This document shows, one piece after another, positions 1,823-33,462 of a stretch of 64,000 bases of DNA (position 1 is the stretch's first letter; every line of letters begins with the position of its first letter). The stretch is from NCBI GenBank assembly GCA_000091205.1, contig AP006488.2, one strand, 5' to 3'. This DNA comes from Cyanidioschyzon merolae (Eukaryota). A model generated the notes under the pieces. The model had not been told where the DNA came from, did no database searches, and saw nothing but the letters and a program-made list of their open reading frames with translations. Both the position numbers and the translations under genes were made by a program.

Positions 1823-2509
1823 CACAGAACGAACGATACCGGGTAGTTCATGCTGCCGAGCCGCGGCATTAGCGGCACAGGATGCGCTGTTTCGCGAAAT
1901 GAAGCAAGTTTTTCCGTTCTCTACGACTTGCTTCCGCACCGTCCACAGCTCGCGACGGGTTTGCTGTGCGGCACGGTGCTTCTAAGCGGCAACCGGTTCG
2001 GGGCACAGGTCGAGTTCGCGCGTCAGCACTGAGTGTCGTCTCCGAGCAGGGTCGCGTGTTGCCTCCGCGTCCTGGTGCGTATCTTGACCGCATCGGATTC
2101 GACTTGCTCCAGATGACTGTAAAAATCGAACAGACGTAATCTTCATTGGAAAATAAGCGGTAATACAAGTCACCAGGGATCCATCTGCTGTCATTTCCTG
2201 CGGACCGTTGCTGAGCAATGCCCCCAGCGCCATGCAACGTACTCATTTTGCTGATCCACACACCATAACCAGACATCATCCCTTATGATGGTCGGATCAA
2301 TGAACCTGCTATTTCCGTGGAACGGCAACATGCGGTACGCGTGTTCTTCGGCGATACCTGGAGACGCGACACGCGTTCGCTGCTGGCAGCGTCGACATGC
2401 GGACCCAGCAAACGGGAACACTAGTGCTGAGCACTTTACGCTGATGCACGCTCCACATAGCTCGAAGCAAAACCCAGTACCTGCACGTCACCTGTAATTT
2501 TTCTTGTTT

Positions 2510-3292
2510 TTATAAAGTGGATTCTTCGACCATTTTCCGATGCTCGGGGATCGATGGTCCCGACGGTGCTCCTGATCCTGCATTCGCGTTCGATGTTGGT
2601 GTCGCTGTCGTCGCTCGAGAGACTGCCCGCGAGTCTGCCTTACGGAACTGACACAACACCGGATAAAGCCGCTGAAATGCTTCGTTGAGATCATCGCGTG
2701 ACTTGGCCCCAGTGATGACGACCTTGCCACTGACAAATATCAAAAGAGCTAATCTCGGTTCCAGCATGCGATAAACAAGTCCGGGGAACAGCTCGGGTTC
2801 ATAGTGGGCATAGTTGCTATGGGCGTGTGCGAGCGCCTCCAGTCGGATCGGGAAACGCACGTCCGCGCTCGCTACGAGGTTGTGCAGCTCAAAATCAGCA
2901 AGCTTGACATCTGCATACCCCAGCTTGCGAACGATCTTCGCATATTTGCGCGCTGCGAGACGAGCATCTTCCTCGGAACGTGCACCCGTGATAACCACCT
3001 TACCGCTACTGAAAATCAGCGCAGTGGTACGAGGGTCTCGTATTCGCATAATCACGGCCGCAAAGCGCTGCGGGTTGTACTCGGCGTTCCGCGCACGCAT
3101 CGCGATATGACGCAGGTCCAGAGGACACAACAGGTTCACAGATGCGACCACGTTCTGCAGCCGTACTTCAACGTCCGCTACTACTACTGGCCGCCGGAGT
3201 CGCTCCGGTGTCGTCGTTGAGACACTGTTTTCTACGGAGCTTTCGCCAGCTTTGCTCTCTTCCGGCCGTTCGGGTGTCGAAGAGTCCGTCAT
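2510..3292 (-). CDS. TBP: TATA-box-binding protein (TBP). The track start at 3382 is TTG; the first in-frame ATG is at 3292.
   Basis: Two direct TBP repeats with canonical blocks, e.g. [37 protein letters not shown] and [23 protein letters not shown]. The acidic/Ser-rich N-terminal tail is typical. Confidence 0.9.
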
Positions 3293-6200
3293 GGCAGCCT
3301 CTTGTGACTCGACGCACGACTGAGGCACAGGAATCTGCAGGGCAAGCTGCGAAAAGCGTCGACGCGATGCAGTAGGTGCCAATAAGCGTTACACCGTCGC
3401 GGTCGAGATGGCGTGCGCGGTTTCGCCCGGTCGGCTAGCGCGCGCTCCGGAACACCTACCAGGCTCGATACTGCTGCAGCCGGTGCTGTTGTCCTCTACA
3501 GAACGTATCGCCGGTCACAGTCCCGGAGTTCCTGGAGCCTTCTGCGCGGTCCAGCGCTCACCGTGCGGGTTACCAGCACCGGGGCACCGCCACAGCCCCA
3601 GGGCGTGTCAGGTTTCGTCGGCGTTGCCAAGGCGCCGCCGCACAGCCGCATCCGCGGCACGGGGCGCAGTGCGTCGACCATTCTGTGGAGAGTTCAGCGC
3701 ACTGCATGCTGTAGTACCGGGAAAAAGACGCATTTTTGTTTCCGAGTGTTCTTCTAACAGGCATTGGATTGAAGGAATTTATTTGTTAAAAAGGAGTTTG
3801 GTGGGCGAATAGGGTGTATGTTCTCGCATCTGAATGAGGAAGGAGCGGAAATGGACGTACAACTTCGTCATACTACAGTCACCAGGTGGATGCGCCATGC
3901 TTCTCGAAGCCCATACTCAGAGCGTCGTGCACCCGACATGGAACGTTCCGAAAGCTATATACACGCTTATCTTTACGAAATCTATTCCAGTCCAAATGCT
4001 CGCACCGTAATGCCACCAAAGATGCAATTCCATGTAAACTTTCGGTAACGTTTCCTCGAGCGGAGATGAAGAGACGCGGATGGATCAAGAAACAGGCACG
4101 CCTCAACAGGAGACCGCACCATTTCGAACAATACACAACAGATTCTGTATAGAAATGCGAATACTTTTCGTGGAAGCGACGGGCGTTCATCTCGCATGAT
4201 GACAAATTCATCGATGACCAATGCGAGACTTGTATAGACGTTGCCGTAGAGGGGCAAGCCGCTGTTTGTGAAGAAGAGTCAAGCGAGCATTCCGACAACG
4301 TCAGTTCTCGCGACGATTCAATACTGTATTCGCCCATGAATCGCAACACAGAGAGCAGCGCTCAGCACCTGATCCTCCGATGAAACACGCCTCGAGTTCC
4401 ATCTTTTCGTGTCCTTCTCCTGGGCAATATCTCTCAGTCCATCACTGATGTAGGTCGGGGGGCGGGGGCGCGGTTTGTAGCTGCTCTTCGTGCTAGCACA
4501 CGCTCGCGGGTTCCATCCGCTTAAAGACGTCGTATAGGATTTCAAACGCCATTTTGATCTACCGGAAGAACAGACGAGTCGTACGTAACCGTGTTACAGA
4601 AGTTCTTCGACAAATCACTCTTTGTGTTCACCAGAACCGAATCCATGCATTGATTCTCCGCTCATTGGCAGCTGAGAAGGGAAAGGTGCGCTCCGGTCTG
4701 GGAGCGGGCATGCGATGGCTAAGGCGACGAAAAAGCACTTGAGAAACAGTGCGTACATTCAAAGAGAAGACGAGTTTCAGGCACGTCGAGCGATCAGTGC
4801 GTCTGAGTGCCAAGAAAGAAAACGTATACAGCGTATCATGAAAAAATCCATGCTACCTAGCCGAGTAAGCGAAAAGGCAAAGATGTCGAAGCCGAAAGAG
4901 ATGCAACCACACGTCAAAGCAGAGAAATAGCTTCCCTAAAAGATGACGAGTTCCGACGGGAACGGAGCACCTTCCGATCGGAAAGATCATTGTTGGACCG
5001 CTGTCAACGCCTCACCAATAAATCATATCCATTGGGAGAATCCTTGAAGGCGTCAGGCACACGACGCCATTAGAGATCGCGTAGCTTCTTACGCGCACAA
5101 GTCTGGCCTATTTCGTCTTGTCTTGGTGCACCGCGCCACGCGACGCTTCGGTGGAGTTCCAGACACGGGCGGCAAGCTCTCGGCATTTCTCTGGATTTTT
5201 TTCGGATCAGACCTTCGTGCGAGAACACAACTTATGCTCCGGATAGAAGGCGCAACACGGCCTGTTCATAGGATTCCGGATGTACTCGCACGCTTCCCAG
5301 AATACCTTGACACATTACCGCGCCACCTCGGCGATCTGAGGATCGACAACGCAGATGCCAGAAAGTACGGAACTACATTCAACATACCAAATTAGGTTCA
5401 GTGTCGAGCGCTTCACGAAACACCTCCCATGCGCATTGTATCCTCACGTCACATACGCGATAAAATACGGATGGATGGACGGGATGCTTAGCGGGTCGAT
5501 GGAGGAAAATGACGAGCGATTGGCGGCAAGAGATCGAGGTGGCAGCGAGTTCGGAACTGATGTGCCAGCGATAGGGAGTATCGCTTCAGGTAATCCAAGC
5601 TCGTCGTGTTGCCGTCAGCCTCGGGTCGGCGGATTTCGTACCGAAAAGGATCGTTGAGACGCAACGCCTACCTTGCTTGCATCTACGGTTCCATGTTTCG
5701 CTGAGCAGATCTTCCCAGAGCAGACCAGAGCAGATTCCATCAGACCGTCGCCTCGAATCCAAGCGCCGTAGCCTCCGAAATCGCCAAGTGGATGTGCTCC
5801 CAGCACCTCAGATGGAAGCCCAGTCGATCACCCGAGACGCTTCTGCTCTGTACTGTATCGCATCTTCAGTGAGCTACAGCTGGTCTGTCTGCGCGCAGCT
5901 ATTCCGCATTCCACTTTAGAGGCTAGGAGCATTGCAGAGCTCGTTCAAGGCTCCTCGTGTACGGAGAAGGAATGGAACGAATTCTACAGTGCCGATGAAG
6001 CTCGCTGGAATACAAATCCGCATGTACTTGTGAGATCGAGGCCCAAGTCAAGCGATGCGACTCGGTCTCAGCCAAAGAAGACATATCAAGAGAGAAACAT
6101 CATGGTGGGCCCGGATCCCCAGGTCTGAGAATATCATGACGGTTGTCGTACCTCTGAATCGAGAGAACGTATCGAGGGATATGCAGGGAATGCAAATGAA

Positions 6201-7993
6201 GCTACTCAGCTTTTCCCGGGCTCGATTTCACCCAGGAATGGGCATGATGAATGCGAGAAGGCACACGAAAACTGGAAAGACGGCGTCAGGGACCAGACCC
6301 CGGTGCTCTGAGCACACTGTCCTGCGGACGAGGATGCTTTGTGTGCTGCATTCAGAGAGAACACGAGCGTCCAAATGGCGTATGTCGACGATCTCTGGCA
6401 GAAATACCTGCGGACGCACGGGAATGGCCAACGATTTTCGGCGTACAGGGGCAAGACGCGAGTATTCAGCGACTTGTTTCATGAACAGGAAAAGAAATAC
6501 GACGGATCGTTCGTCTCGTTGGGTGACGGTACCCTATGGCGCAAGACGTGCTGTGGCGCTCGTGGGCTGCACGCCTGCTCCTCTGACGAGAACGTAGAAC
6601 GAGTGCAGGAAACGATTCTGTACGACGCCTGTCGATGAGTTACGGCCAAAAGAGAAACGTCACGAGCACGAGTGCCCGTTGAAACAGCCAGAAACGAAGC
6701 GCTTGAAACAGAGCACAATGGGCGAGATGGGGTACGGCAGGCTGCCCGAAGTTCGAATGGCAAGGCAATGGAAGGTCAGCGGCCTGCGTTCATGTGCGCA
6801 TACTGGCAACCATGCGAGCCAGCTCCTTCTGCAACGAGACTTCGCCTCGATCAACATCTGGATATGTCTGGTGCCTCGTGCAAGTTCAGTAGCTTTACGT
6901 CGAGCAAAGTTTCCTGGTACTCGTTTCGTACTCGGTGCGTGCATTACGCTGAAACGCAGAAGAATTCCGATGACGTAGAAATACGCAGTCAAAAGGGAGG
7001 GAATCTTATTGCAGCTCGGAGCAACGCACTGGTATACTGCGGTTCAGCAATTCAGCGCCGCTGCACTGTGTATCGATACCCGGAAAACCATTCGCATTGC
7101 CATTAGGTAGGCGGTACTGGATTCCCGTGATTCTCGATTCGTAAGTATAATCAATGTTATTTGACCGAGTTGTTCTGGGAAACGAGCGACAACAGCTGCG
7201 ATCATTGCACAGCAGCTGGCAACCTGGTGTCTGTCTCACACACGGTCCGAACGTTGAACGCCTGGACACGTGCCGGTGCGTCACGCTTGCATTTCAACAA
7301 GTTCGTGGCGAATAGGCGTTTCCATTTCAACATTGTGGCAGCGACGCTGACCCCTGAACCAGAGGACAACGATAAAATCAGGGCATTGCAAAAAGAAGCG
7401 CACGCGGAAACCTGTAGCCACCTCCATAGCAATCCCTGTCGTTCAACGATACGAACGCTGTGTCGAGGACTGCTGGGGGCGCTGCCAAACCACTGGATCT
7501 TCTATTGCGAAGTTCGCACACTCTTGACAAAGATAAACCTCACGGAGCCGTCTGCCGCGCACAGACGACATTTGGCGGAGCGAAAACGCGTCTACTGTGG
7601 GAGGCTCATCAGTGGCTTTGCGAAAGCAACTAGCTTCGCTTCCCTGCGATACGATGCTGGCACTGTGAAGAGGCAAACCGCTTGAAACGGTAGCACCCGG
7701 ACACACAGATCGGGCTTGTAGCTGCGGAACAGCAGCGACTCGTTCGCTCTTCGATGCTTTTGATGGATGCGGAATCACAACATCTGAGGAGGTACCGAGT
7801 TCGTTGAAGAGATTGAGAGAAAGAGAGAAAACGTAGGAGAGCGCAAGGGAGCGGCGCAGTAGCTCGCGCGCTCTGATTGCCGACCTCGCCCTGGGCACGA
7901 TTTATGATTCTTGGATACGAAAGCCGCGGTTTCCGTTGCCTCCAAGGCAACAAACAGTTCCCTGTAATACTATAGACCCATGTAATTCAACTG

Positions 7994-10285
7994 ATGCAGC
8001 CTCTTCCTGTTTATTTAAGTATCGACGTGGGCACTGGGAGCGCACGAGCTGCGCTCTTCGACGAACTGGGACGCTGTCTAGCTAGGGCAGATGCGCCGTT
8101 TCCCACTCATAACCCTAAACCAGACTATTTTGAACAGTCGACTGTTCACATCCTTAAAGCGGTTGCCAGCTCCACACGCCAGGTACTGGAAACACTGAGT
8201 CAAAACGCAACGACGAGCGTCAGCACCGCTGGTACCGTACTGACACGCTCTCTGCAGACGCTGGGCGCGTCGGAGAGAGCAGAGCTAGGGCCTGCGGTAC
8301 CCCAGCCAACAGGCCATGGAAACGAGCAGCGACCTGCCTGGCAACTGTGTGGCGTTGGTGTCGACGCAACCTGCTCTTTGGCGCTTGTCAGTGCTGAGCA
8401 AGCAGCATTCTTCAGGAACTGCTATAGCGACGAATGCGCTTCACCGGAGGGTCTGTGGTCATGTGTACCTGGCGGCGTCGCGCTGGACGTGGAACACAAT
8501 GACGACGATGGCGGAACGTTGCCCCAAGCCGTCTGGGATATTATCGTATGGATGGACCATCGTGCCGAAGCAGAGGCGGCTGAAATGAACGCTGACACTG
8601 CCGAATGCACCCAGGATGTGCTTCGCTTCTACGGGGGATCCCTGTCTCCGGAGAGCGAGCCCCCGAAGCTGCTCTGGTTGCTGCGTCATCGACCGGAGCT
8701 GTTCCTGCGATGCACTGCCGTCATGGACCTCTCTGACTTTATTGTATTTGCGCTAACTGGGAACTTGGAGGCACGCGGACTCTGTCCCCTGGCTGCAAAG
8801 TGGGCATATCGCACCGATGAAATGCGGTGGGATACGAGCTTCTATCAACGATGGGGACTCGGGGACCTGTTTACGCGCGGATGCTTCGGTCGAGAGATTC
8901 GTTTACCGGGGCAGCGAGTCCACGGCATCGGGGATTCGGTTGGACTTTCAAAGATTGCAGCGTTTCTGTTGTTTGGCTCCCCGACATCGGACGTGACATC
9001 CCGAGCCTCCAACTGCACGTTAACCGCAAGAGGTGAGCCCGTCGATGGAGGTGCTGCAGCGCAGCTCGTCTGGGACTATCGCGAAGTTGTCGTTGCTGCC
9101 GGCATGGTCGATGCACATGCGGGTGCCGTGGGAGCCTACAGTATGCGTATTCCAGCAACAGGAGAACGATCTGACTGGTGGATCCAGCCGACTGGGATGA
9201 AGGAGGCACCATCGGGCCTCAGTGCGGGAACAAGGCCGATGTCCGCTGCCTGTACTCCAACGGGTCACGCCTGTACAACTGCAAACACGCAAGCGATGCA
9301 CGTTCTAGATGAGCACGGCCTCAACATTACCCAGTGCGCAACGGGATCCATTGTAGACGACCGCTCAAACATATCAAATGAAACCGCACCGAGCCTCATG
9401 ACTATCGATCTGACAGGGGCACGCGTTACTTCAGTGGGTACAGCTGCTGCTGCTGCTGCCGCTGCTGCCATGGTGCCTTTCGACTGGTGTCAACGCATTG
9501 CCTTGATTGCTGGCACGTCAACGTGTCACATGGTCTGCTCGCGGGAACCTGTTTTCGTTCGTGGTGTATGGGGTCCGCACCGCACCGCGGTGCTCCCAGA
9601 CCTGTGGCTCAACGAGGGAGGCCAGAGCGTCACCGGTCGATTACTCGATTATCTGGTCGAGAGTCATGCGCATGCTCTCGGCTTCGGAAACACACCGCTC
9701 GCCGTGGTCCACGCTCGACTCTGTCAACTTGGCAAGCACCAGATGAAAAGAGCAGCGGGCATCCATGTGTATCCGGATTTCCATGGGAATCGTTCCTTGC
9801 TCGCGGATCCACGCATGAGTGGAGCGATTGTCGGGCTACGTCTGGACACCTTCGCCAACGAGGAGGCTTTTGCTGCGCTTTACCTGGCCACCGTGCAATC
9901 CCTGGGCTACGGAACGCGTCAAATCATTGAGCGTCTTAACGAGGCAGGTCACGACATTCGCGTGATCCTGCTCTGTGGTGGCATGCTGAAGAACGAGCTG
10001 TTTGTGCAATCACTTGCAGACACGTGTCAGCTGCCGGTAGTATTCGCAGAGCGCCCTTTCGACGTCATGCTCCTGGGTGGCGCTATCTGCGCGCGCTGTG
10101 CGCACCTGGAAGGCGATCTTTTGCAGGTAATAGAAGCCATGAACGGCGGGCCTGATCAGCTTTTTTATCGACTGGATCCGGATCCGAAATGGCGGATGTA
10201 TCACGAAGCGAAATATCGAATTTTTCAGCGAATGCAACAAGAGCAGATAGCGTATCGAGCAGCGATGATGAATGTTTGGACATGA
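7994..10285 (+). CDS. FGGY-family carbohydrate kinase (FGGY/ribulokinase-like) with low-complexity insertions
   Basis: ATG start. The N-terminus LSIDVGTGSARAALFD matches the FGGY N-terminal phosphate-1 motif. The C-terminal ILLCGGMLKNELFVQSLADTCQLPVVF ... MLLGGAICA matches the FGGY C-terminal domain. It contains a poly-Ala run from a GCT/GCC repeat at about 9436-9470. Confidence 0.7.
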   Translation: MQPLPVYLSIDVGTGSARAALFDELGRCLARADAPFPTHNPKPDYFEQSTVHILKAVASSTRQVLETLSQNATTSVSTAGTVLTRSLQTLGASERAELGPAVPQPTGHGNEQRPAWQLCGVGVDATCSLALVSAEQAAFFRNCYSDECASPEGLWSCVPGGVALDVEHNDDDGGTLPQAVWDIIVWMDHRAEAEAAEMNADTAECTQDVLRFYGGSLSPESEPPKLLWLLRHRPELFLRCTAVMDLSDFIVFALTGNLEARGLCPLAAKWAYRTDEMRWDTSFYQRWGLGDLFTRGCFGREIRLPGQRVHGIGDSVGLSKIAAFLLFGSPTSDVTSRASNCTLTARGEPVDGGAAAQLVWDYREVVVAAGMVDAHAGAVGAYSMRIPATGERSDWWIQPTGMKEAPSGLSAGTRPMSAACTPTGHACTTANTQAMHVLDEHGLNITQCATGSIVDDRSNISNETAPSLMTIDLTGARVTSVGTAAAAAAAAAMVPFDWCQRIALIAGTSTCHMVCSREPVFVRGVWGPHRTAVLPDLWLNEGGQSVTGRLLDYLVESHAHALGFGNTPLAVVHARLCQLGKHQMKRAAGIHVYPDFHGNRSLLADPRMSGAIVGLRLDTFANEEAFAALYLATVQSLGYGTRQIIERLNEAGHDIRVILLCGGMLKNELFVQSLADTCQLPVVFAERPFDVMLLGGAICARCAHLEGDLLQVIEAMNGGPDQLFYRLDPDPKWRMYHEAKYRIFQRMQQEQIAYRAAMMNVWT

Positions 10286-14051: not shown

Positions 14052-16373
14052 TCAAGTGATACGGCCAAAGGCCGTCGCCGTGATGAACAGTCCGTCGCTC
14101 CAGTCCTCGCGAATCTTGCACAAGGGCCCATGACTCGTGCGCGTGCAGCGTTGCTCTTCACCAGACGCGTGTCCACGACTCATCACATAGGCCGATATAT
14201 CTGATCCGCAAGCAACTGCCGTCAGCATGTAGCCCTCGTCCCAGCGGTGATGAATGCTCTCACTGGGATACCCAAATTCGAGTTCGACCACCTGCTCCTT
14301 GAACGCTGTGCCTCGGCTCATGACGACGAGCCACTGCTCGGCAGAGGGCGGCCCCTGGACACAGAGGCTGGTGATGGCATAGCCGTTCGTCCACTTGTCG
14401 GCACACCACTTGGCCGGGAAGGTCGAGCTCACGATATAGCTCTGTTGCTTGTAGCGTTTGTTGCGATTCATGGTCGATGCGACAATCCCCCAACTTGTGT
14501 GATTCGCTGAGCAAGCAGTGATGTAGAAGCCCTCGTCCCATTTGCTGCGAATCCAATCTCGAGGCACTTCATTGCCGGGGCAATAGTGCATGGCTTGCTC
14601 CACCAGCACGGGATCTCTGGCGTTGAGGACGCTGGTCCACATCCCGCCGTCGAAGCACAACACGCTGATGCGCATGCCCTGAGCCCATTTGCGCTCCACC
14701 TCGCGCACCAGATTCTTGTACGAGGTATGACTCGTGTACACCTGGCTCGCTGGGGCACATGACGAGGCGTTGTTCGCTGAGGTGCTTATGATTACCCACT
14801 GATGTGTTTTCGTCGTTCGTGGTGCAATAATTTCAAAGCGTCCTCGTCGCATGCCCACGTCCTGGAGCGCCAAGGATAGCGCATGTTCAGCGAGCGCGCC
14901 ACCACGAATGCCCACGTCCGGCTCTGTGGAGCTCGCTCGCGAGACCGCTTGCGCCGTGTTCTGCAGCTCGGCCGCCGCACCCGGCGTTCGCGCTCGCTTT
15001 GGTGCCTGGGCAGATGCTTGCCCTGACATACCATTCCGCCGCTTACCACCGACCGTGCCCGGCACTGACGACTCCACAAGAAGAACTTCTGCTGCTCCTG
15101 CGCTGTTCTGCGAGACATCGCTGGCCAAGTTGATGATATTCGCACTCGGTGCGGCACTATCGACATCAACAGTCTCGGCGGCAGGGGTACGTGCCTGATA
15201 CGGGGGGACAAGCGGCACTCCCTCGGCCATGAGGCGCATTTGCTGATGAATCCAAACGATTCCCTGCTTGCAATCCAAAATCCGTGCCATGTACTCGTAG
15301 TCTGGCTGTTCAGCGAATTTCAGCTGCCGCACGTAGGCCAAAAAGTAGCGCAACTCATCCGGCACTGCTCGACAGATGTCATTAACTAGCATGCGTCCCT
15401 TGCTTTCGCAGACTTGCATATTCTTGTCGTCGCCGACAAAACCTTGCCACGGGAGCTGCCCTTTCAACAGATAAATCAGCATGTAAGCGAGTGATTCCAG
15501 ATCGTCTCTCCGAGACAGGTGGCGGCCGAGGTGCGCGTTCACCGACGCGTACCGCACCGTGCCGCTAAAGTGATCAATACGTTGACCGTATGGGACGTGC
15601 TTGCCCGTGGCGTCATCCTCGCGCCAACGGGTGGCGAGGCCCATGTCAATAATATAGAGAGGCACGTTGACGTCGATTTTCGCCGGCGTCACGCGAGCGT
15701 ACTTTGGGTCACTCACGGATGTCGTTCCATTGGCGCCCGTCCCGGAGGCATCGCGTGCGTCTATATTCACCTCTAGTAGCGCCAAGGGGTCCACGCACGA
15801 CCCCCCCGTATTCTGGCGACTTGACGTCTGGTTTTTCGGTTCGCGGTATTCGAGGAGGAAATTCTCGGGCTTCACATCCCCGTGAACATAACCGATGTCG
15901 TGGACTCGCTTGATCAACGCCAAACACTTGAGCGCGATCTGAGACACTTGTGGCCAGGTAAATCGTCGCGAAACTCGAGATTCAAGGGCCTTCTGGAGCG
16001 TAGGTCCCAACAGCTGCATAACACAGACAAAATATCGCCCGACATGTCCAGTGTAGTAGACAGTGGGAGCGCCGAGTCCCTGCATCCGCATCAGAACCTC
16101 CCACTCGCGATACGCAATCGTTCGGGAGCGATACTCCAGTTTCACCGCTACTGGCTCGCCTGTAAGCGCGTTGCGGCCCTTGTAAACGTCGCCAAAGTGG
16201 CCAGAGCCAAGAAAAACGTCCTTTTCCACGATGAAACCTTTGCCGCCAGTGCAAGGGCACGACTGCCCCACCACCGTTGGAACTGGATCCTTCGGCTCCG
16301 ACGCACTCGCTGCGGGTGTCGCACCGACCGCTGGCTCGACAGCGGCTGTGCGCCCTCCCACTGGGCCCCGCAT
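14052..16373 (-). CDS. Casein kinase I (CK1)-family Ser/Thr kinase with an approximately 250-aa C-terminal extension of five tandem approximately 49-aa W-x2-G-[FY]-x-[IL]-T repeats
   Basis: ATG start. CK1 hallmarks are present: LGSGHFGDVYKG, VAVKLE, GTVRYASVNAHLGRHLSRRDDLESLAYMLIYLLKGQLPWQG. The catalytic loop reads HGDVKPENFLL (HGD rather than HRD) and the activation motif is DMG rather than DFG. The C-terminus carries the repeats WAQGMRISVLCFDGGMW, WDEGFYITACSANHTSW, WTNGYAITSLCVQG, WDEGYMLTAVACGSD and WSDGLFITATAFG. Confidence 0.8.
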   Translation of the reverse strand: MRGPVGGRTAAVEPAVGATPAASASEPKDPVPTVVGQSCPCTGGKGFIVEKDVFLGSGHFGDVYKGRNALTGEPVAVKLEYRSRTIAYREWEVLMRMQGLGAPTVYYTGHVGRYFVCVMQLLGPTLQKALESRVSRRFTWPQVSQIALKCLALIKRVHDIGYVHGDVKPENFLLEYREPKNQTSSRQNTGGSCVDPLALLEVNIDARDASGTGANGTTSVSDPKYARVTPAKIDVNVPLYIIDMGLATRWREDDATGKHVPYGQRIDHFSGTVRYASVNAHLGRHLSRRDDLESLAYMLIYLLKGQLPWQGFVGDDKNMQVCESKGRMLVNDICRAVPDELRYFLAYVRQLKFAEQPDYEYMARILDCKQGIVWIHQQMRLMAEGVPLVPPYQARTPAAETVDVDSAAPSANIINLASDVSQNSAGAAEVLLVESSVPGTVGGKRRNGMSGQASAQAPKRARTPGAAAELQNTAQAVSRASSTEPDVGIRGGALAEHALSLALQDVGMRRGRFEIIAPRTTKTHQWVIISTSANNASSCAPASQVYTSHTSYKNLVREVERKWAQGMRISVLCFDGGMWTSVLNARDPVLVEQAMHYCPGNEVPRDWIRSKWDEGFYITACSANHTSWGIVASTMNRNKRYKQQSYIVSSTFPAKWCADKWTNGYAITSLCVQGPPSAEQWLVVMSRGTAFKEQVVELEFGYPSESIHHRWDEGYMLTAVACGSDISAYVMSRGHASGEEQRCTRTSHGPLCKIREDWSDGLFITATAFGRIT

Positions 16374-18088
16374 GGTGCCCGCTCACCCCTGGTACACAGC
16401 CACAGACACGCTTGCTTCAGCAGCTTCAAAAACCTCCTGGTATCCAAACACGCTCCGCTTCAACCCGACTCACGGCTTCTCTGAGCAAAATCTGTCGAGC
16501 GAACAATAGACAACTCAACCAAAACCACCACAGAGTCGCAGCCCAGAGTCTTTTGTAGACGTGACAAGTCGTCCGTGCGAACTGGCGCTGCCACTACCGC
16601 TGCGTCGCGCGAGGGTTTCCACTACAACCGACTCGTGCAACCTCGAAACAGCCTAAAAACGGAAACTGACCTCTATCGTTGGATACTGAGTATTCCTGCT
16701 TTCACGTCAAGTACTATAGCACCAAACAGGAACCTACTCGAAACGTGTATACCCGCTCATATGGTCCATGCGTTCAGGGTAGTCACGCGCTGAGCGTCTA
16801 TCGAACGCGCGCTGTCTCGAGGCGCTGTTCATACATCCCCGCGTGACGCGACCCTGCGGGCGCTGATGCGCAAGCGCGCGCTGCAATGGACATCGCTGCA
16901 TCAAGATCGATGGTGCAATCCTGATTCGATTGCGATGACAAAACGTTTCCATGGAGCAGGGATCCCTGGTTTCGGGAAGGATGGGTGGTGGCGTTCGGGA
17001 AAGCGTCCATCATGATGTTACCTCCAGGTTCCTTTTGGATATACTGGCCGTTTCGTATGGTCTATCGTTTGCCGAGTACTTGATGTGAGCGCTCGCCTCG
17101 GGGCTTGTATCGCTGGAGCAGATATATCATGGGGATAGAACGGCTTTGGCACGCCATTGAGGGCGTCGGATCGAGGAACGCTTCACCTGATACGTAGTCG
17201 GAGTATATGATCAATCTGCGAGCCTGCAAGCTGCGCTGGCAGACGGACTGCCTGCGGCAGTTTGACGCGATATACTAGGAGTCCACTGCGACCAGATCGA
17301 CGCCCAGATGGAGCCTAACTGCCCCTGATCCCAGAATGAATTGCGTTTTGCGGACGCATTGTTCAGGTCTCGCCACAGCACCTGCCACTGGAGGAAGCAT
17401 GAAGCACGAGCTTGGTAGATTCGTCCGTCTCGCGGGACCTTACGCCTAGAAGGTAAACTTTCGAAGATACGGAAACCTTTCCCCTTTGTAACGTTTATCG
17501 TAGATGGGGATAGAAATACATAAATATTTGCAGGTGAATCGTGAGTCTATGTTCCTTATTCTAAATAACGCGCTCGGTACGCGCATCCCAAATTTGGTAG
17601 TACGAAATACGACGCGAATGTCGCTGTTGAAGGGAAACGCGATCGAGACAACACGTTTTCTTTTTTGGGAGCATTCGATCTCGTACTCGCAGCGTGCACT
17701 GTTGGTGAGGGTCTTGTCCCATGGATGACAACGGCATTGCACGGCTAGATCTAGTGTGTTGTTCTACTGTAAAAGTCGGATTTCCTTTGAGGCCATAGCA
17801 AAGTCTAGTTTCCCAGTTCAATTGTGTTTCAAACCTCAAGTAAGAATATTCCATTGAATTTTCGCAGCATATAACAAATGCGTTCGAAGAGGGCTCTTTT
17901 TCAAAAGAAACTAAGAAAAAGGAAAGTTGTGAAAAAGCAACTGGACGATCCTTGAAGTCCAGGATCCTCGGCTGCCAGAAAAAAAAACGAAAAACAGTGC
18001 CGAGTCCAGAAGAAAAGGAAGAGAAGAGGACCGAAAGGGGGAGGCCCTGCGTCGAAGACGGCCAGAAAGACGACTGTACGACGAGACG

Positions 18089-20020
18089 GTGGTGAAAGCC
18101 TTTCTTCTTGGACATATCAAGGGGTCGTACAAGGAAAGGTTGCGAGACGCTATCGAAAAACGTGTCGATTCGTACACCAAGAGCACCATAAAGACGTCGT
18201 CAGGACTGATGCATTTGGTGAGAGAGATGTATCGCGACGTGACGCACATGGAAACGGTCGAGATTCCAGACGAGTTGTTCGACCAGACCTTTATTCGGCA
18301 CCTGATGCTTGGCACAGGGAAACGCGGAGGGGAAATGAGTTCGTGCATGCTCTCCACGGAAAACATCCCTTTTATAGCTTCGAGGGTACTCGATACAAGG
18401 CTGACCAGGATATTTACACATACGGGGCAATGAAGTACCTCACGAATCTGAAGAACCATTTGACAATGAACCTCGAACGTTTCATGATACGCTCCGTGTT
18501 TGCACTCTACCCGGGTCTGTCTCGCAATGGAAAATGGGCGATTATCAATGGCATCACGAAAGATCGTAAGCATGAAGATGAGACGGAGATCGTTGACAAG
18601 AAGTCGTCAAACGAGAGCACGAATGAAGCTTCTGTAATCCGTGCGCCTAGTAAAGAGTACCGCGCAGACCTGGGGCTGGCGAATCCAGCAGAAAAGATGT
18701 CAGAGTTGAAAAAACATATGGAAAAATACAATCGCCTCATCCTGCGGTATTTCTTGTTTCTGGACCGAGAGCTCGAATGCAAGGCAGATGTGAAGCTAAG
18801 TGAGGAAAACAATGAAGAGTCGGAGAGACGGACGGCTTTCCTAATGGGGAAGCGCGTCAACGTGGTTCCAATGTGCAACATCAAGTCACATTTTGTGACT
18901 ACCGACTCCAGAGTCCTTCATGGCATCATCAGGAAGATCAGTCTTGAGTTCAATGTTAGCAGGGAGGAGTTCACCGGCGAGAACCGGGAGCCGTACTGGA
19001 AGAATATCTTCGATTTCAAACGTCTCAAAGTGAGCAAGCAAAAGGTATTCACTTGGATGATCGAAACCGATGGAGTAGCCATGGACGTACACTATCGGCG
19101 CTTGAAGGCAGATCGTCCAGTTCCGCCCTCTGCTGCGCCCTCGACGAGCCATGCAGAAAAGAAGGAGGCGGATCCTGCGATGCAGGAGGTGCAGGATAAC
19201 GACTTTGTCGTGGGTGCGGACCCTGGGAATACGAATATCATAACCATCGCAGCACCCAAGCCTGGGGAAGATGATACTGACGGTGACTTACGTCAGAGAG
19301 ACAAGCGTCTTTTGAGGTTCTCGACAGCGAGATACTATCGAGAATCCGGTATAATGAATGCAAGGAAGAAAATTGATACGTGGAATGCAGGAATGAAGGA
19401 TCACCTGGAAGCTTTGAGTGAGGTGACGAGCCGAGGAGCGGGCTTACAAGCTTTTCGGAAACTCATGGAAATACGCGTTGCTCATTGGGAGGCGCTGTGG
19501 GAGGAGTATACAAATCCCCGGTGGGCTCGTCTGCGAATGAATCTATATTGTGGGAAGCAGCGGGCGTTCGCGGACTTTTTCAATCAGTTGAGTGCCCTCA
19601 AAGAGGATGAAACTCAGAGGCTGGAAGTAGCTTATGGGGCAGGGCGCTGGAAGAACCGAAAAAAGGGACTACGCCAGCTCCAACGACAACAACGTACAAA
19701 GAGTGTGCACGGCGTTTCGCTACGATACCTGTAGATGAGTTTCGAACGTCCTACACACACCATGAACTGGGGTGTACACTTCAAAGGGTCGAGATGGAAA
19801 AGTGCCAGCGGAGCGCTGAAGACTTAAAAAGCACGGACCACTGACAGAAGAGCATATGGAATAGAGGGCAAAAGTTCGTGGACTACTCGCATTCGTAAGT
19901 ACAACCATTTGCAAAAAACGTATGGAATTTCTGAACCGGGACTTGAACGCCGCGATCAATATCAGGAGACGTGCGGTGATAGAACAGAGACCTCCACAGT
20001 CGACAAGAGCGAAAAGCGTT
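18089..20020 (+). pseudogene. Fanzor/TnpB-like RuvC nuclease gene split over at least 4 frame segments (18089-18433, 18343-19734, about 19710-19841, 19922 onward). It is either frameshifted/degenerate or interrupted by short introns.
   Basis: The RuvC-I-like [17 protein letters not shown] lies at 19201-19251. The zinc-finger-position motif VDEFRTSYTHHELGCTLQRVEMEKCQ lies in a different frame at about 19731-19810, and the CxxC pairs are mostly lost. The RuvC-III NRDLNAAINIRRR lies at 19934-19972, in a third frame. The segment starts are GTG, GTG and ATG. Confidence 0.6.
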
Positions 20021-20082
20021 GGCTGGCGTGATCATTTCGTTCATGAGAAAAATCAACGGCGCGCTCGAGCGACTCTCCAGCC

Positions 20083-20134
20083 ACGCCCGAGATATTCTCG
20101 GTCCGTCGTTACGCCCGAGATATTCTCGGTCCGT
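20083..20134 (+). repeat. Tandem duplication (period 28) of acgcccgagatattctcggtccgt. Each unit forms a perfect hairpin ccgaga-tat-tctcgg (20087-20101 and 20115-20129).
   Basis: Read directly. It lies about 150-210 bp downstream of the RuvC-III motif at the presumed right end of the Fanzor-like element. Confidence 0.75.
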
Positions 20135-20150
20135 AGCTCCGCCAACTCAA

Positions 20151-20167
20151 ACGAACGAACGAACGAA
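20151..20167. repeat. (ACGA)4 microsatellite immediately after the hairpin pair
   Basis: acgaacgaacgaacgaa read directly. Confidence 0.9.
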
Positions 20168-20189
20168 AGCTCTTCTATCGGGTGCGAAA

Positions 20190-22154
20190 ATGCGCTCCGA
20201 CTCAGTGCGTCTTGTCAGTACAACTTTTCCGAGTCTAGTAGATATTCACAGGAATATTCATGACGCAGTTACAGTGCAAGCTGAGCTCTTGAGAGCTGCT
20301 TCGCCACGCGCAACTCCAGTGATGGCTGGTGCGCGCTCCCCAATCGCTAAAGCCTCACCGCGTCCTCGCACGGTCGTGTACTTTGGCACGTACACGCGTG
20401 TGCTACACCACAGTCGTGGGACCGGAAAAGGTGTGTTCGGGTTTTGGTTGGACAACGACACAGGCTACCTGGCTCCTCTTAAAACTGATTCCCCGGAGGA
20501 GGCTGACGAGTCTGGACTCGTCGTCCGTGCTGACGGGCTACTGTGTCCAGCGTATTTCTGTCGCGATCGTGGCCCTTCAGGCGAGTACCTCTGGGCAGTC
20601 AATGAAACGTCCAAGTTCGACTATGCTCGCCCGGATATTTTCGGGTCGGTGACCCTGTTCCGCTGGCTGCGGCGCGAGGGCGGCCTGCTAGAGCGGCTCG
20701 GAGAGTTTGCGACCGCGGGACACGGCGCTTGCCATCCGTGGACGGATCACCTTGGACGGTTTCTTCTTATAGCAAACTACTGGAGTGGATCTGTTGTGGT
20801 CTTCCATATCGAGCGTGAGGCAGTGGAGCGTGAGCATACGACGAGTCCACGTCTGCACCTGGTGCAGCATGTGCAGTTTATATCCCCAGTCGATGCAGTC
20901 GACGAGGAAACGAAACCGTGCGCAGCGTCGCTCCTAGGTCTCACTGAAGCGATGCAACAGGCACAGAAAGCAAAATCAAGTCTCTTGGGTTTCCGCCGCG
21001 ATCGGCAGGATGGACCACACTCACACCAGATCGTGGTTGACCCCACCGAGCGCTTCCTCTATGTCCCAGATCTAGGAACGGACCGCATCTATCAATTTAT
21101 CCTCCGGTTTGATGAGGTAGCTTCCGAGCTGGCACACGGAAAAGACCAAGAGTCTCTGCGGTGCGTACCGCACGCTGCGTTATCGGGAAGCGATGCGCAG
21201 TTGTGTACAGAGGCACAGGATGCTGTCGCTGCGCATGTACGGGGCACATCGCCTGGTCCTGATGAGCAGAACGGTCGCCCCATTCAAGCGCAGCAGCAGC
21301 GTTTCATCACTCCGGCTGGTGTGGTGTCTGACTACCCGTTCCAAGCGCCCCAGGGTGGCGTACTGTACCAGACCGAGTTCGCACGAGCCACCGGGACGGC
21401 GTGCTGTCTCCTGCCGCATCCCTCTGCGGCGTTCGTTTCCGTGCCGCCGAGCGGTGCGGGACCTCGCCACATGTTGTTGCATCCATCTGGCCGTTGGGCG
21501 CTCGTTCTCTGTGAACTGAACGCGACCCTGCTGTGCTACGCCTGGGACGGACCAACGCCAGTGGAGACGGTGCTTGGGCATCAGACTGCCAGCGGGCTGC
21601 TGTCGAGCACGCCTGCGTCCATGTTGGACTTGCTCCCGGCCCACTATCGTCAGAGGTACTCGCCGGAAATACTGCACCAGTACAACATCTCGTCGGCGTT
21701 GCGTCTGCATCCATTGAGAACGGATCGGCTCTATGCGAGCAACCGTGGACACGACTCAGTTGCGGTTATCGAGTTCTCCGAACAGAATGGCTGTATGCGG
21801 ATTCTGCAGTGGGTTCCGTCTGGTGGACGCACCCCACGTGATATCGCCCTGGATCCCCGCGCAGAGTTCCTCTACGTGGCTAACCAAGATTCAGATCGAG
21901 TAGCGGTGTTCAAGCTGGATCCCGATACTGGCTTGGTTTTGTCGACTGGCCACCATGCGCCATGTCATGAACAAGCTGCAGATGCTGGTCAGAGTGCCGA
22001 CTTGGGCGCTGCACCAAATCCCGAACAAGATGGCATGTCCGCGGACTCAATGGATGATCTAACGCTTGCGGGCTGCGAACAACGGTGCACACCTTACCAA
22101 ACGCTCTCGATCCGCGAGCCTTGCACGGTATTCGTCGAGGAGGTACCCCTCTAG
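20190..22154 (+). CDS. Lactonase, 7-bladed beta-propeller family (6-phosphogluconolactonase / carboxy-cis,cis-muconate cyclase-like). The track start at 20019 is TTG. In-frame ATGs are at 20043, 20190 and 20322; 20322 is an equally plausible start.
   Basis: Conserved SGAGPRHMLLHPSGRWALVLCELNATLLCYAWD (the GxGPRH motif), HQIVVDPTERFLYVPDLGTDRIY and NRGHDSVAVIEF blocks typical of PF10282-type lactonases. Long low-complexity inserts are present. Confidence 0.7.
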   Translation: MRSDSVRLVSTTFPSLVDIHRNIHDAVTVQAELLRAASPRATPVMAGARSPIAKASPRPRTVVYFGTYTRVLHHSRGTGKGVFGFWLDNDTGYLAPLKTDSPEEADESGLVVRADGLLCPAYFCRDRGPSGEYLWAVNETSKFDYARPDIFGSVTLFRWLRREGGLLERLGEFATAGHGACHPWTDHLGRFLLIANYWSGSVVVFHIEREAVEREHTTSPRLHLVQHVQFISPVDAVDEETKPCAASLLGLTEAMQQAQKAKSSLLGFRRDRQDGPHSHQIVVDPTERFLYVPDLGTDRIYQFILRFDEVASELAHGKDQESLRCVPHAALSGSDAQLCTEAQDAVAAHVRGTSPGPDEQNGRPIQAQQQRFITPAGVVSDYPFQAPQGGVLYQTEFARATGTACCLLPHPSAAFVSVPPSGAGPRHMLLHPSGRWALVLCELNATLLCYAWDGPTPVETVLGHQTASGLLSSTPASMLDLLPAHYRQRYSPEILHQYNISSALRLHPLRTDRLYASNRGHDSVAVIEFSEQNGCMRILQWVPSGGRTPRDIALDPRAEFLYVANQDSDRVAVFKLDPDTGLVLSTGHHAPCHEQAADAGQSADLGAAPNPEQDGMSADSMDDLTLAGCEQRCTPYQTLSIREPCTVFVEEVPL

Positions 22155-31009: not shown

Positions 31010-31476
31010 CTCGAATACAAGTAAAGAGAGATCGGGCGCAGAGCTGATCACCGAAGAGACCTGCACATACAAACAGGCGCATTTGAATACGTCTTTCATC
31101 GGTAGGTGCACGGTGCACTGTTCGGGAGCGCACACGCTGGAAGCAAGCTCGCTTCTCGAAGGCGTGTAGCGCGATCTCGGAATACCGCATATCGATACGC
31201 ATGTTTGCGTGGAGGAGGACGCGTGCGCGAACCCAGACGCCGAAGCGAACCTTGGGGTCTGTTCGCAGTGGCGGCGAAACTAGTCGTGGCGGGGAATGGT
31301 CTCCGACTGCTTCATGTTACGCTCACGTATCCCCTGCTTGTAGAACGCCGGTCTACTGTTTCTCTAGCCCTGTTGTCAGCAGTCGAAGATGACGGATGCT
31401 CGTGTTCATTCCCCTGCTTTCGCTGCATACAGCCGTTGTCGACGCATATGGTGCTCAGGCGGACGTTGCTATGTAC

Positions 31477-31784
31477 GCATCGCTTGCCATGTTCTTCGTG
31501 TTTGTATATAAGTCAGTGCGTTTGTTGCAGCGTTGACACCTGCATGTGGTCAGGTGTCGCTTGCCATGTTCTTCGTGTTTGTATATAAGTCAGTGCGTTT
31601 GTTGCAGCGTTGACACCTGCATGTGGTCAGGTGTCGCTTGCCATGTTCTTCGTGTTTGTATATAAGTCAGTGCGTTTGTTGCAGCGTTGACACCTGCATG
31701 TGGTCAGGTGTCGCTTGCCATGTTCTTCGTGTTTGTATATAAGTCAGTGCGTTTGTTGCAGCGGTGACACCTGCATGTGGTCAG
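31477..31784. repeat. Tandem array of four 77-bp units: gtgtcgcttgccatgttcttcgtgtttgtatataagtcagtgcgtttgttgcagcgttgacacctgcatgtggtcag. Each unit junction forms the hairpin gacacctg-catgtggt-caggtgtc (8-bp stem). Each unit contains TATATAAG.
   Basis: Read directly. Full units start at 31554, 31631 and 31708. The first unit (from 31477) is slightly diverged at its 5' end, and the last has one substitution. The array lies in the intergenic region 470 bp downstream of the clathrin stop. Confidence 0.85.
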
Positions 31785-33462
31785 GTGTCCAGCGTATGTC
31801 CATCGCGCCGCCACCGAGTCGTCAGAAACCCATATTGCAGGGAATCATTCCTTGCCGCAGCGCTCGGTACGTGCACTTGAGGCCTACAGAAGGCCTCCAT
31901 CGATGTCCTAGTCGGTTTCCGCGGCAGGTGCCGTTGCCAACGATCACCAGCTTGTTTTATTTCTAGACGGAACCCAGAGTGAGCACTCTGTCTGCTGCCC
32001 AGGCAAGCGCACGCTGGTTCTCTCAGTCGAGGATTTCTGAAACGCGATGTTGGCCATAACGAAGCAGGTACCGCAGGGGCGGGTATCCAAACCGGAGAGC
32101 AACTCGAGGTATTCGATCGGTGGACGCTCCCTTCTTGCACAGCTTCGACGCACGCTTCACGAAAAGCGATCGCTGCGATAACTCATGTCCGAGTCCAGGC
32201 TTCATTTTCGTGAAGACTCAAGAGATCCAAGCCTCCAGGCACGTAATCCGTGAGTAGTATGGCGCGGCTCCTGTGGAATCCAGTATCGTCGACGGCCAAA
32301 AGATAGGAGGATATGTATGTCTCGAACGGATTCCATTGTTTGATTTGTCAAGTTCAATGAACTTTGAGCATGAGCTTGTGAACAGTTCACAAAGAGAAGA
32401 CGTCCTCGCGTATTTTTCCTCGTTATTCGGGCGGCGCGAATTGCTGCGCTCACAAGTTGCCTTGAAAAATGGTAGATCGAAAACATGAAGCTCCCGTGGT
32501 CTGAGCAAACGACACCTGAACGGGACGCGGGCAGTGGGCTTCTTTCTAATCATTAAATCATGATAAGGGTTATTTTACGAGAGCGTATTGAAAGGCATCG
32601 CGAATCATTTTGATTCTGGTGTCGTCAAGAATTCTAGTAGCGAAACGTCGAAGATGCCACCCCAGAAAAGTACCAAGAAGCATCGTAAAACTACGTATGC
32701 GCGCGGAAGCCCTCGTTGCTGCGCATCGAATGTCGCAGCTGCACATGTGGCAAAAGAAACGCCCCGAGAAAAATCGAACTGCAGGAAGCATCAAGCATTT
32801 GAATGTTCCGTCTTCATCTGACACGGGTAGAGCCGGCGTCCTCTGTTCATGAATCAAGACCCAAATGCAAGGCGCGTACCTTCCGACACTTTCCGCTATG
32901 GTCTTGTTAGGCGCGACGGCGCACCTGATGGCATCGCTTTGGATACACGAAGCCCATGTTCTTTGGTTTGATGCTGGGAAGCCGCGGATGCCACCCATGC
33001 CTTACCCGTCGGGGCAAGAGCGGTGTCGCTGCTGTGCTCGTACGCGACGACGGAACGCAGTCCGAGTTCCACTGGTGCTCGACGTGTGCCTTGGGCATGT
33101 GCACAATGCACCGCGCATATGCTTGCTCTTTGTTTTTTTCGCATGATGCGGTCGTAGCAAACCGTAAGCACGTGCAAAGTTGCCGTGCAGGGCGCTCGGT
33201 ACCTGGAACCTCATTAGGCATCTTCGTGGCATTTTCAGGTCAATCATTATCACGTCAAAACATCGGTCGTTGCCGGGTCGCAGCACCGACGCTGAATATG
33301 TTAATGGTGCGAACACATCCATGCGTCAGCTCACGTCCACGCGCACGTTCCTCGACAGTTCCGTGCGAAGCCAGCTCGCCAGCGCGCACAGCCACAAACA
33401 AAGGCTTGCGCGCAGTCTCGATTCTTAAGAAGGCTAAACCAGATCCATTGCCCCAATTCCAT

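Follow-up and report, generated by a model that had tools for sequence, protein, structure and literature searches.

The closest described system is CMe-1A, an element of Cyanidioschyzon merolae reported in the study that named Fanzor (Bao and Jurka 2013, Mobile DNA 4:12; PMC3627910), where it appears as an unclassified transposon of about 150 copies without terminal inverted repeats (TIRs). Its consensus ORF (nucleotides 906-3110) encodes the 734-aa Fanzor1 protein CMe-1, its 5' 635 bp are 95% identical to the repeat TE-N2_CMe, and some copies elsewhere in the C. merolae genome are still intact (PMC3627910). The 2013 definition of Fanzor1 includes a C4 zinc finger, set after RuvC-II and before RuvC-III, and the same authors nevertheless listed CMe-1 as Fanzor1 (PMC3627910); according to PMC10711439, only 'many' Fanzors carry the finger. 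An arrangement of RuvC-II around an alternative Glu has been described (PMC10530073, PMC10711439), and in characterised Fanzor systems the guide RNA arises at the 3' or right end (PMC10432273, PMC10530073). Helitron2 non-autonomous elements, which carry Chlamydomonas Fanzor1, possess a 5' hairpin with asymmetric terminal inverted repeats and a 3' hairpin.

We analysed a 64-kb stretch of C. merolae DNA, here called the window, whose encoded RFC2 and ribulokinase exactly match the C. merolae 10D entries BAM79482.1 and BAM79472.1. Results indicate that window 16933-20013 is almost certainly a CMe-1A copy that lacks its 3' end and no longer functions, CMe-1A being a TIR-less, unclassified, Fanzor1-coding DNA transposon of about 3.2 kb, and that this copy is now inert. 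The published 3169-bp consensus (PMC3627910, supplementary file 2) aligned to the window by blastn in two segments, consensus 1-725 to 16933-17644 (78.9% identity) and consensus 734-2992 to 17752-20013 (86.3% identity). Judged by sequence comparison, the element is one already known and published in 2013, and its identification as Fanzor1 is correct. The copy and its parts are as follows.

16933-20013, plus strand: CMe-1A copy, 5'-complete and 3'-truncated, consensus 1-2992 of 3169 (blastn of the published consensus)
16933-17644, plus strand: 5' non-coding CMe-1A module, the first ~635 bp corresponding to the separate repeat TE-N2_CMe (blastn; Bao and Jurka)
17645-17751, plus strand: about 107 extra bp, found in neither the consensus nor the paralogues (gap between the two blastn segments)
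17929-20013, plus strand: Fanzor1 (CMe-1) coding relic, consensus ORF nt 906-2992 (tblastn, hmmsearch)
20014-20189, no strand: flank outside the element, in place of the expected last 177 bp of CMe-1A; holds a 28-nt tandem duplication (identity drop, end of nhmmer match)

The first-pass annotation had set the element at 17440-20263, an interval that starts inside it and overruns its end into the flank 5' of the lactonase gene. Past 20013, identity to the consensus drops from 0.85-0.95 to 0.46, nhmmer no longer matches the family's tail profile, and 35 of about 70 paralogous metagenome loci cease matching the window at exactly this position. The last 177 bp of CMe-1A are absent, and with them 39 codons and the conserved 3' tail. 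At the other end, the boundary drawn from metagenome paralogues was ambiguous because 5' modules differ among subfamilies, and the published consensus settled it at 16933. In metagenome loci the 5' module also occurs apart from the coding part or in the opposite orientation to it, and the ~107-bp break recurs in comparisons with the paralogous loci L021, L024 and L045. The paralogues carry a 3'-terminal hairpin, and a comparison by eye, made with the Helitron2 features in view, showed no match between the 5' end of the element (CGATGACAAAACG) and the sequence upstream of that hairpin. A search of the element ends gave no inverted repeat pairing 16933 with 20013, a weak test on this copy because it lacks the true 3' end. 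A kinase/DUF7477 gene and the lactonase gene flank the element, no TnpA lies among the neighbouring genes, and the antisense ORFs inside the element gave no Pfam match; the initial reading that the locus lacks a partner transposase and TIRs is supported.

The CMe-1 protein matched the coding relic by tblastn in four collinear pieces of 61-91% identity. A 62-member family profile searched against the six-frame translation (hmmsearch) gave four collinear matches as well (18023-18322, 18322-19665, 19659-19829 and 19862-20017), which jointly span profile positions 8-601 of 619, with E = 7e-93 for the central piece. The nuclease motifs are therefore not isolated, as collinear homology extends across the family members. 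Three-frame translation bore out the three motifs, each in a different frame, on which the first-pass annotation was built: RuvC-I at 19201-19251 in the frame of 17401, VDEFRTSYTHHELGCTLQRVEMEKCQ from 19731 in the frame of 17400, and NRDLNAAINIRRR at 19934-19972 in the frame of 17402.

18343-19734, plus strand: longest surviving ORF, 463 aa, GTG start; REC/WED-like protein middle and RuvC-I (ORF list)
19142-19219, plus strand: one unit of a 75-nt (25-aa) tandem repeat, directly 5' of RuvC-I (repeated blastn matches within single loci)
19219-19221, plus strand: RuvC-I catalytic Asp codon in GADPG, 19213-19227 (three-frame translation, family alignment)
19737-19739, plus strand: alternative RuvC-II Glu codon in VDEFRTS, 19731-19751 (three-frame translation, family alignment)
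19940-19942, plus strand: RuvC-III catalytic Asp codon in NRDLNAAINI, 19934-19963 (three-frame translation, family alignment)

The 463-aa ORF is 81% identical to CMe-1 residues 131-578. The tandem repeat numbers one to five units in the paralogues, with a 225-nt in-frame length difference from paralogue L006. In the family alignment the RuvC-I DPG is conserved as D 62/62, P 58/62 and G 62/62, and GADPG aligns to the DPG/DPN of solved Fanzor1 proteins. The alternative Glu, which precedes a [TS][TS] motif, occurs in 62/62 members, while the strand of the canonical RuvC-II reads AYG[SA]A and contains no acidic residue. The R, D and N of RuvC-III are each present in 62/62, so that the catalytic triad Asp-Glu-Asp (DPG Asp, alternative Glu, RD Asp) is invariant across all 62 members. 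The CMe-1A consensus has GKKRKT and KKQKREARRQR at its N-terminus, and the relatives P0060 and P0063 open with K/R-rich stretches.

The coding relic is dead: its start codon is lost, two premature stops and five frameshifts interrupt it, and its 3' end is gone. Lesions were mapped against two independent references, the paralogue L006 and a new consensus of 32 paralogues. At the position of the lost start the published consensus reads ATGGAAAAG.

17929-17931, plus strand: lost start codon, ATG to GTG (alignment to the 32-paralogue consensus)
17953-17955, plus strand: premature stop TGA, consensus GGA (consensus alignment)
17979-17980, plus strand: frameshift 1, +2 nt in an A-run against the 32-paralogue consensus, +3 against L006 (alignment)
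18027, plus strand: frameshift 2, -1 nt (both references agree)
18318, plus strand: frameshift 3, -1 nt (both references agree)
19658-19659, plus strand: frameshift 4, +2 nt, not in the orthologous copy of a related strain (alignments; protein P0001 on contig L080 reads through)
19828, plus strand: frameshift 5, -1 nt (alignments to the references)
19862-19864, plus strand: in-frame stop TAG, consensus AGG, in MERRAKVRG (translation, consensus alignment)

The gene had been called possibly decayed, and the consensus alignment confirms as much through the lost start, the stops and the frameshifts; the reading frame, taken to change twice, changes five times by both references. A recent death, which had also been proposed, is at odds with the divergence of the copy, which is 79-86% identical to the published consensus and about 90% identical to the 32-paralogue consensus over the coding body. 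The orthologous metagenome contig L080 carries the same relic; relic and flanks together match window 14430-20228 at 98.97% identity. Since this identity of about 99% runs across relic and flanks alike, the relic is an old one, shared with a close relative and not recently dead.

Conservation of the locus at 99% in the related strain, together with a truncated end 177 nt upstream of the lactonase ATG (20190), could suggest that the relic was co-opted, for example to serve the lactonase gene as a promoter or other 5' regulatory sequence or to yield a small RNA, and has been kept for that purpose. We consider this very improbable. The flanks share the 99% identity equally, and the figure therefore reflects only the closeness of the two strains. 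The frameshifts differ between the strains, the +2 at 19658 being missing from L080/P0001, and Rfam gave no match.

We next consider the zinc finger, whose cysteine pairs the first-pass annotation had reported as largely lost here and in three sister copies. CxxC pairs are indeed absent from the window copy, from the window's other relics and from the family at large. The residues at the four zinc-finger positions are H, L, F and I in the window and H, L, L and none in CMe-1; in the 62-member alignment, the columns at the cysteines of solved Fanzor1 hold H25/C7/other at C1, D25/T23/C3 at C2, C48/62 at C3 and no Cys at C4. By these alignments the loss is real and extends to the clade as a whole (Pfam DUF8286); the CMe-1 sequence as published shows it already. 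It had led to the suggestion of a new Fanzor subfamily, distinct from published ones and defined by a degenerate finger. Pfam knows the family only as DUF8286, the standard TnpB/Fanzor models miss it, and regular-expression screens for CxxC...CxxC (PMC10711439) would skip it. However, the window aligns to both the CMe-1A consensus DNA and the CMe-1 protein, which were published in 2013 as Fanzor1 with the cysteine loss in plain view. A new subfamily is thus very improbable and is refuted for the window locus, which belongs to the CMe-1A/CMe-1 family.

The clade itself comprises 443 clusters at 50% identity with E <= 1e-30, including many intact proteins of 600-700 aa, and retains the invariant Asp-Glu-Asp triad. 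We propose, tentatively and with more doubt than confidence, that it may be a large branch of Fanzor1 whose members gave up the CCCC zinc finger and still cut DNA under RNA guidance. A finger-less Fanzor1 clade of retained activity is not described in the Fanzor literature examined, and screens built on CxxC...CxxC (PMC10711439) would have passed the clade over. In the TnpB/Fanzor literature the finger counts among the conserved elements of the nuclease lobe, and the clade includes many intact members that do without it. If such proteins are active, the finger would be dispensable and a distinct engineering scaffold would be gained.

Frame changes within a gene whose three catalytic motifs are all readable, and in which a 463-aa ORF persists, might instead point to a live Fanzor gene, its exons joined across frames by very short introns or by programmed frameshifting, as some Fanzor genes elsewhere contain introns (PMC10530073). 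The alternatives of frameshifts or very short introns had both been left standing at first reading, and only the former survives: set against the consensus and paralogues, the changes are five indels of 1-2 nt rather than inserts bounded by splice sites, and are therefore not introns. The gene starts with GTG, two codons that have sense in the consensus are stops here (TGA at 17953, TAG at 19862), and the last 39 codons are gone. Few genes of C. merolae, only about 26, contain introns. The published CMe-1 gene has a single exon, entered as '734 (1)' in the supplementary table (PMC3627910). A live gene is accordingly the next thing to impossible, and the locus is best read as a decayed CMe-1A copy.

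The homology to Fanzor1 escaped standard searches. Single-sequence searches of Pfam, NCBIfam and, by phmmer, the PDB, using the repaired window ORF or the published CMe-1, all fell below threshold: PF07282 (OrfB_Zn_ribbon) scored 17.2 bits against a cut-off of 26.3, NF040570 (NCBIfam guided_TnpB) scored 11.6 bits against 100 (E = 0.12), and PF01385 gave no match. The first-pass annotation had held that a lack of significant HMM hits would speak against it, and these results nearly overturned it; the significant matches came from the family profile. In the PDB, a profile built from nine close relatives had no match, and success there needed an exhaustive search for relatives and the 62-member profile of diverse relatives. 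This profile matched the Parasitella (9cf0, E = 1e-23), Spizellomyces (8gkh, E = 2.2e-16) and Guillardia (9cer, E = 2e-12) Fz1 structures, and the alignments set DPG, DEFRTS and NRD on corresponding Fanzor1 residues. Among the sequence comparisons, it is only through the family profile that homology to Fanzor1 emerges, and with the consensus alignment it upholds the call of a eukaryotic TnpB homologue, of Fanzor1 type. Foldseek with an AlphaFold2 model of P0060 ranked six Fanzor1 chains at the top (E 3e-9 to 2e-6), which lends weak support, the model being poor (pLDDT 52.5 from a 9-sequence alignment; TM-scores 0.2-0.3). Chance resemblance in non-coding DNA, to which the shortness of each motif and the subthreshold Pfam and NCBIfam scores might incline a reader, is dismissed by the collinear profile matches and by the 69 close and 3512 distant protein relatives. 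Contamination by a prokaryotic TnpB was rejected on the DPG and alternative Glu of the protein and on the eukaryotic flanks, and a domesticated host gene was rejected as the element is multi-copy and decaying.

Three sister copies had been counted in the window, which in fact holds six other relics.

44570-44914, minus strand: sister relic, CMe-1A consensus 2737-3083, 69% identity, in a 1224-nt inverted repeat (consensus and CMe-1 alignment)
50666-51010, plus strand: sister relic, again CMe-1A consensus 2737-3083, in the second arm of the 1224-nt inverted repeat (consensus and CMe-1 alignment)
55528-55979, plus strand: sister relic, CMe-1A with an internal deletion that joins consensus 832-968 to 2888-3038 (blastn of consensus)
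4973-6909, plus strand: older, nearly full-length Fanzor1-like relic, DPG Asp lost, 27-30% identical to family proteins (protein and profile matches)
37074-37232, minus strand: C-terminal Fanzor1-like fragment that CMe-1A DNA does not detect (profile E = 6.5e-4)
60668-61665, minus strand: N-terminal Fanzor1-like fragment (profile E = 1.4e-6 for 60668-61048)

By homology, the ancestral CMe-1A would have encoded a nuclear RuvC endonuclease of TnpB/Fanzor type, with a predicted active site formed by the Asp residues of DPG and RDxNAAxNI and by the 'alternative' Glu of DEFRTS. We infer that ancestral CMe-1 was RNA-guided: a guide (omega) RNA from the element's 3' end would direct cutting beside a transposon-adjacent motif, and such cutting would favour retention or spread of the element. 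The window copy lies between the kinase and lactonase genes and is inherited as inert intergenic DNA. The paralogues share a conserved 3' tail of ~180 nt, gone from the window copy; this tail may form a long-range stem and has a hairpin at its end. Its folding was only modestly more stable than that of shuffled sequences (z = -2.5), RNAalifold yielded no consensus structure for 37 paralogue tails, and Rfam gave no credible match. Manual pair counts indicate that the tail helices are conserved but barely covarying, and therefore no omega RNA is claimed for CMe-1A.

The locus itself matters little, as one of about 150 decayed CMe-1A copies, unable to make protein or guide RNA. It serves as a worked example of a Fanzor1 relic missed by Pfam, NCBIfam and single-sequence PDB search; since standard models miss the clade and Pfam labels it only as a DUF, annotation pipelines will keep missing it.

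Compared with known systems, CMe-1A shares the RuvC fold with prokaryotic TnpB of IS200/IS605 and IS607 (e.g. ISDra2), and the two are also laid out alike, with the nuclease gene towards the 3' side of the element and a guide RNA that would come from its right end. TnpB differs in its canonical RuvC-II Glu, D-hydrophobic-G rather than DPG, zinc ribbon and TnpA partner (PMC10711439), none of which occurs at the window locus. The solved Fanzor1 proteins SpuFz1 (8gkh), PpFz1 (9cf0) and GtFz1 (9cer) show collinear homology to the family over ~450 residues and have in common with it the RuvC-I DPG, the alternative Glu in D/E-E-[FY]-x-T-S, the RuvC-III RD, an apparently basic N-terminus and a length of 600-750 aa. 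They carry a CCCC zinc finger (CxxC ... CxxxxC) directly after the T-S motif, which the family lacks, and the SpuFz1 element is flanked by TIRs and TA whereas CMe-1A has no TIRs. Closest of all is the published CMe-1A (Bao and Jurka 2013), from which the window copy differs in its missing last 177 bp, the ~107 bp added at 17645-17751 and its disrupted ORF, and with which it shares the C. merolae host, the TE-N2_CMe-like 5' module, the single-exon gene, the lack of TIRs and the level of divergence from the consensus (~80%) that the paper reports for the ~150 copies.

The relic at window 16933-20013 (+ strand) is a copy of CMe-1A, an element already known since 2013 from Bao & Jurka (PMC3627910), the paper naming Fanzor, which catalogued one Fanzor1 family in C. 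merolae. CMe-1A was described as having about 150 copies, each about 80% identical to a consensus of about 3 kb, with no TIRs, undetermined TSDs and an unknown class; its 5' 635 bp are equivalent to a separate repeat, TE-N2_CMe, and the 3169-bp consensus and 734-aa CMe-1 protein are given in the supplement (PMC3627910). A blastn comparison matched consensus 1-725 to 16933-17644 (78.9% identity) and consensus 734-2992 to 17752-20013 (86.3% identity), while tblastn with CMe-1 returned four collinear pieces of 61-91% identity. The two blastn segments indicate that the copy begins at base 1 of the element, lacks the last 177 bp and contains about 107 extra bp at 17645-17751. The novelty proposed by the first-pass annotation therefore fails, and the locus itself is of low interest.

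Three-frame translation of 17400-20400 located the three motifs reported earlier in exact agreement with their claimed positions, each in a different frame. The G+C content of the relic region is 0.48-0.50, compared with about 0.57 in the flanks. Its main features and neighbours are as follows.

14052-16373, minus strand: kinase/DUF7477 gene, one neighbour of the element
18343-19734, + strand: longest ORF in an ORF search, 463 aa with a GTG start
19201-19251, + strand: RuvC-I segment, 17 residues
starting at 19731, + strand: VDEFRTSYTHHELGCTLQRVEMEKCQ
19934-19972, + strand: NRDLNAAINIRRR
ATG at 20190: lactonase gene, the other neighbour

Farther away, the ribulokinase (7994-10285) and RFC2 (46200-47198) genes encode proteins identical to C. 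merolae 10D BAM79472.1 and BAM79482.1, respectively. A 24-nt core, ACGCCCGAGATATTCTCGGTCCGT, is duplicated in perfect tandem at 20083-20138 with a 28-nt period and a hairpin (CGAGA-TAT-TCTCG) within each unit; it has no further occurrence in the window, and the lactonase start codon lies 51 nt downstream of the tandem end. A separate array with a 77-nt period occupies 31403-31787, giving four 154-nt matches that overlap one another; identity is 99-100% in three.

Lesions were mapped against the open paralogue at metagenome locus L006 and against our own consensus of 32 metagenome paralogues, all on the + strand.

17929: start codon loss, ATG to GTG
17953: premature stop, TGA
17979: indel, +2
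18027: indel, -1
18318: indel, -1
19658: indel, +2
19828: indel, -1
19862: premature stop, TAG

The five indels account exactly for the frame succession observed in translation. Because they are only 1-2 nt long, the frame changes are frameshifts and not introns, which refutes the earlier alternative of very short introns. At the 3' side, a DNA profile built on the family tail matches as far as 20013, past which identity to our consensus falls from about 0.9 to background (0.46); the paralogues remain alike among themselves for about 180 nt beyond the corresponding point. The lost part comprises the last 39 codons and the conserved 3' tail. The window copy of CMe-1A is dead. A metagenome contig (L080) aligns to 14430-20228, both flanks included, at 98.97% identity and carries the same relic without the +2 indel at 19658. 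This makes the insertion an old one that a close relative of the host also has and that continues to decay; the suggestion of a recently dead element is not supported.

The first-pass annotation correctly recognised a TnpB/Fanzor homologue without any database search. Standard models scarcely detect the repaired ORF, which scored 17.2 bits against Pfam PF07282, below the cut-off of 26.3, and E = 0.12 against NCBIfam guided_TnpB. A word-indexed protein search yielded 69 relatives, nearly all from JGI metagenomes of hot-spring type and carrying the precomputed label PF26935 (DUF8286), among them seemingly intact proteins, 614-702 aa long, whose N-termini are rich in K/R. A profile of nine relatives found no match in the PDB; run exhaustively over 1.84 billion cluster representatives, it collected 3512 relatives, and for 443 of these E was 1e-30 or lower. 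A second profile, built from 62 diverse full-length members, matched three solved Fanzor1 nucleases in the PDB (Parasitella 9cf0, E = 1e-23; Spizellomyces 8gkh, E = 2.2e-16; Guillardia 9cer, E = 2e-12), with DPG, DEFRTS and NRD falling on the matching Fanzor1 motifs in the profile alignments. The same profile gave four collinear matches in the six-frame window translation over 18023-20017 (best E = 7e-93), spanning positions 8-601 of 619. The top six Foldseek hits of a low-confidence AlphaFold2 model (pLDDT 52.5) of P0060, an intact relative, were Fanzor1 chains, which weakly supports the homology. For the DUF8286 clade, single-sequence searches give no tie to TnpB or Fanzor and the diverse profile alone does; distant members lie on metagenome contigs of 2-4 kb.

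Further Fanzor1 relics were detected in the window.

44570-44914, - strand: CMe-1A 3' fragment inside an inverted repeat
50666-51010, + strand: CMe-1A 3' fragment inside the same repeat
44553-45776 and 49804-51027: 1224-nt inverted repeat, arms 98% complementary, a CMe-1A 3' fragment at the end of each
55528-55667 and 55829-55979: short, internally deleted CMe-1A copy, 832-968 joined to 2888-3038 in the consensus alignment
4973-6909, + strand: divergent Fanzor1-like relic, protein profile only
37074-37232, - strand: divergent Fanzor1-like relic, protein profile only
60668-61665, - strand: divergent Fanzor1-like relic, protein profile only

The two 3' fragments are each just 69% identical to the consensus, and an old relic together with about 860 nt of further sequence appears to have undergone recent inverted duplication or gene conversion to give the 1224-nt repeat. 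The RFC2 gene lies between the arms of this repeat, as does a longin/synaptobrevin gene on the minus strand (48168-48944). The CMe-1A DNA consensus had no match at the three divergent relics, which at the protein level are 27-48% identical to relatives such as P0060. These relics suggest at least one older Fanzor1 lineage in C. merolae; the catalogue of 2013 has just one family.

By analogy with its homologues, the ancestral CMe-1 would have acted in the nucleus as a DNA endonuclease guided by an omega RNA, in the service of its own transposon. Characterised Fanzor systems derive their guide RNA from the 3' end and right end of the element (PMC10432273, PMC10530073). A conserved tail of about 180 nt is present at paralogue 3' ends (for example L006 8246-8430, L046 and L051) and absent from the window copy. 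It contains a possible long-range stem (AGTAGTGG / CCACTACT) and a terminal hairpin in two sequence variants (CGTCGTTCGA-CTT-TCGAACGGCG and AACGTTTTTC-TTT-CGAAAGGCGTT), with folding energy modestly better than shuffles and slight covariation. This structure may serve as a signal for transposition or belong to the scaffold of a guide RNA.

The catalytic triad is conserved throughout the family, the DPG Asp, DEFRTS Glu and RD Asp each being present in 62/62 aligned members, while AYG[SA]A is the sequence of the canonical RuvC-II strand. The stretch directly 5' of RuvC-I (window 19142-19219) is an acidic/basic tandem unit of 75 nt (25 aa), of which paralogues (L006, L011, L020, L021 and L028) have between 1 and about 5 and the window relic a single one. 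The combination of DPG and an alternative Glu is the Fanzor signature of two 2023 papers (PMC10530073, PMC10711439), and the family has the same arrangement. The zinc finger differs: the four Cys of solved Fanzor1 correspond in the family to H/other, D/T, C (48/62) and a non-Cys residue, and CMe-1 has lost the third as well. P0060 still has His and Cys at H576, C581, C621 and H631, possible ligands of a substitute metal site. The earlier observation of zinc-finger loss is thus correct: the loss is a property of the whole clade, present already in published CMe-1. The one point that merits further attention is that this Fanzor1 clade without a zinc finger is large and seemingly intact. The C4 finger was called strictly conserved by the paper that published CMe-1 (PMC3627910), and is ascribed to no more than 'many' Fanzors elsewhere (PMC10711439).
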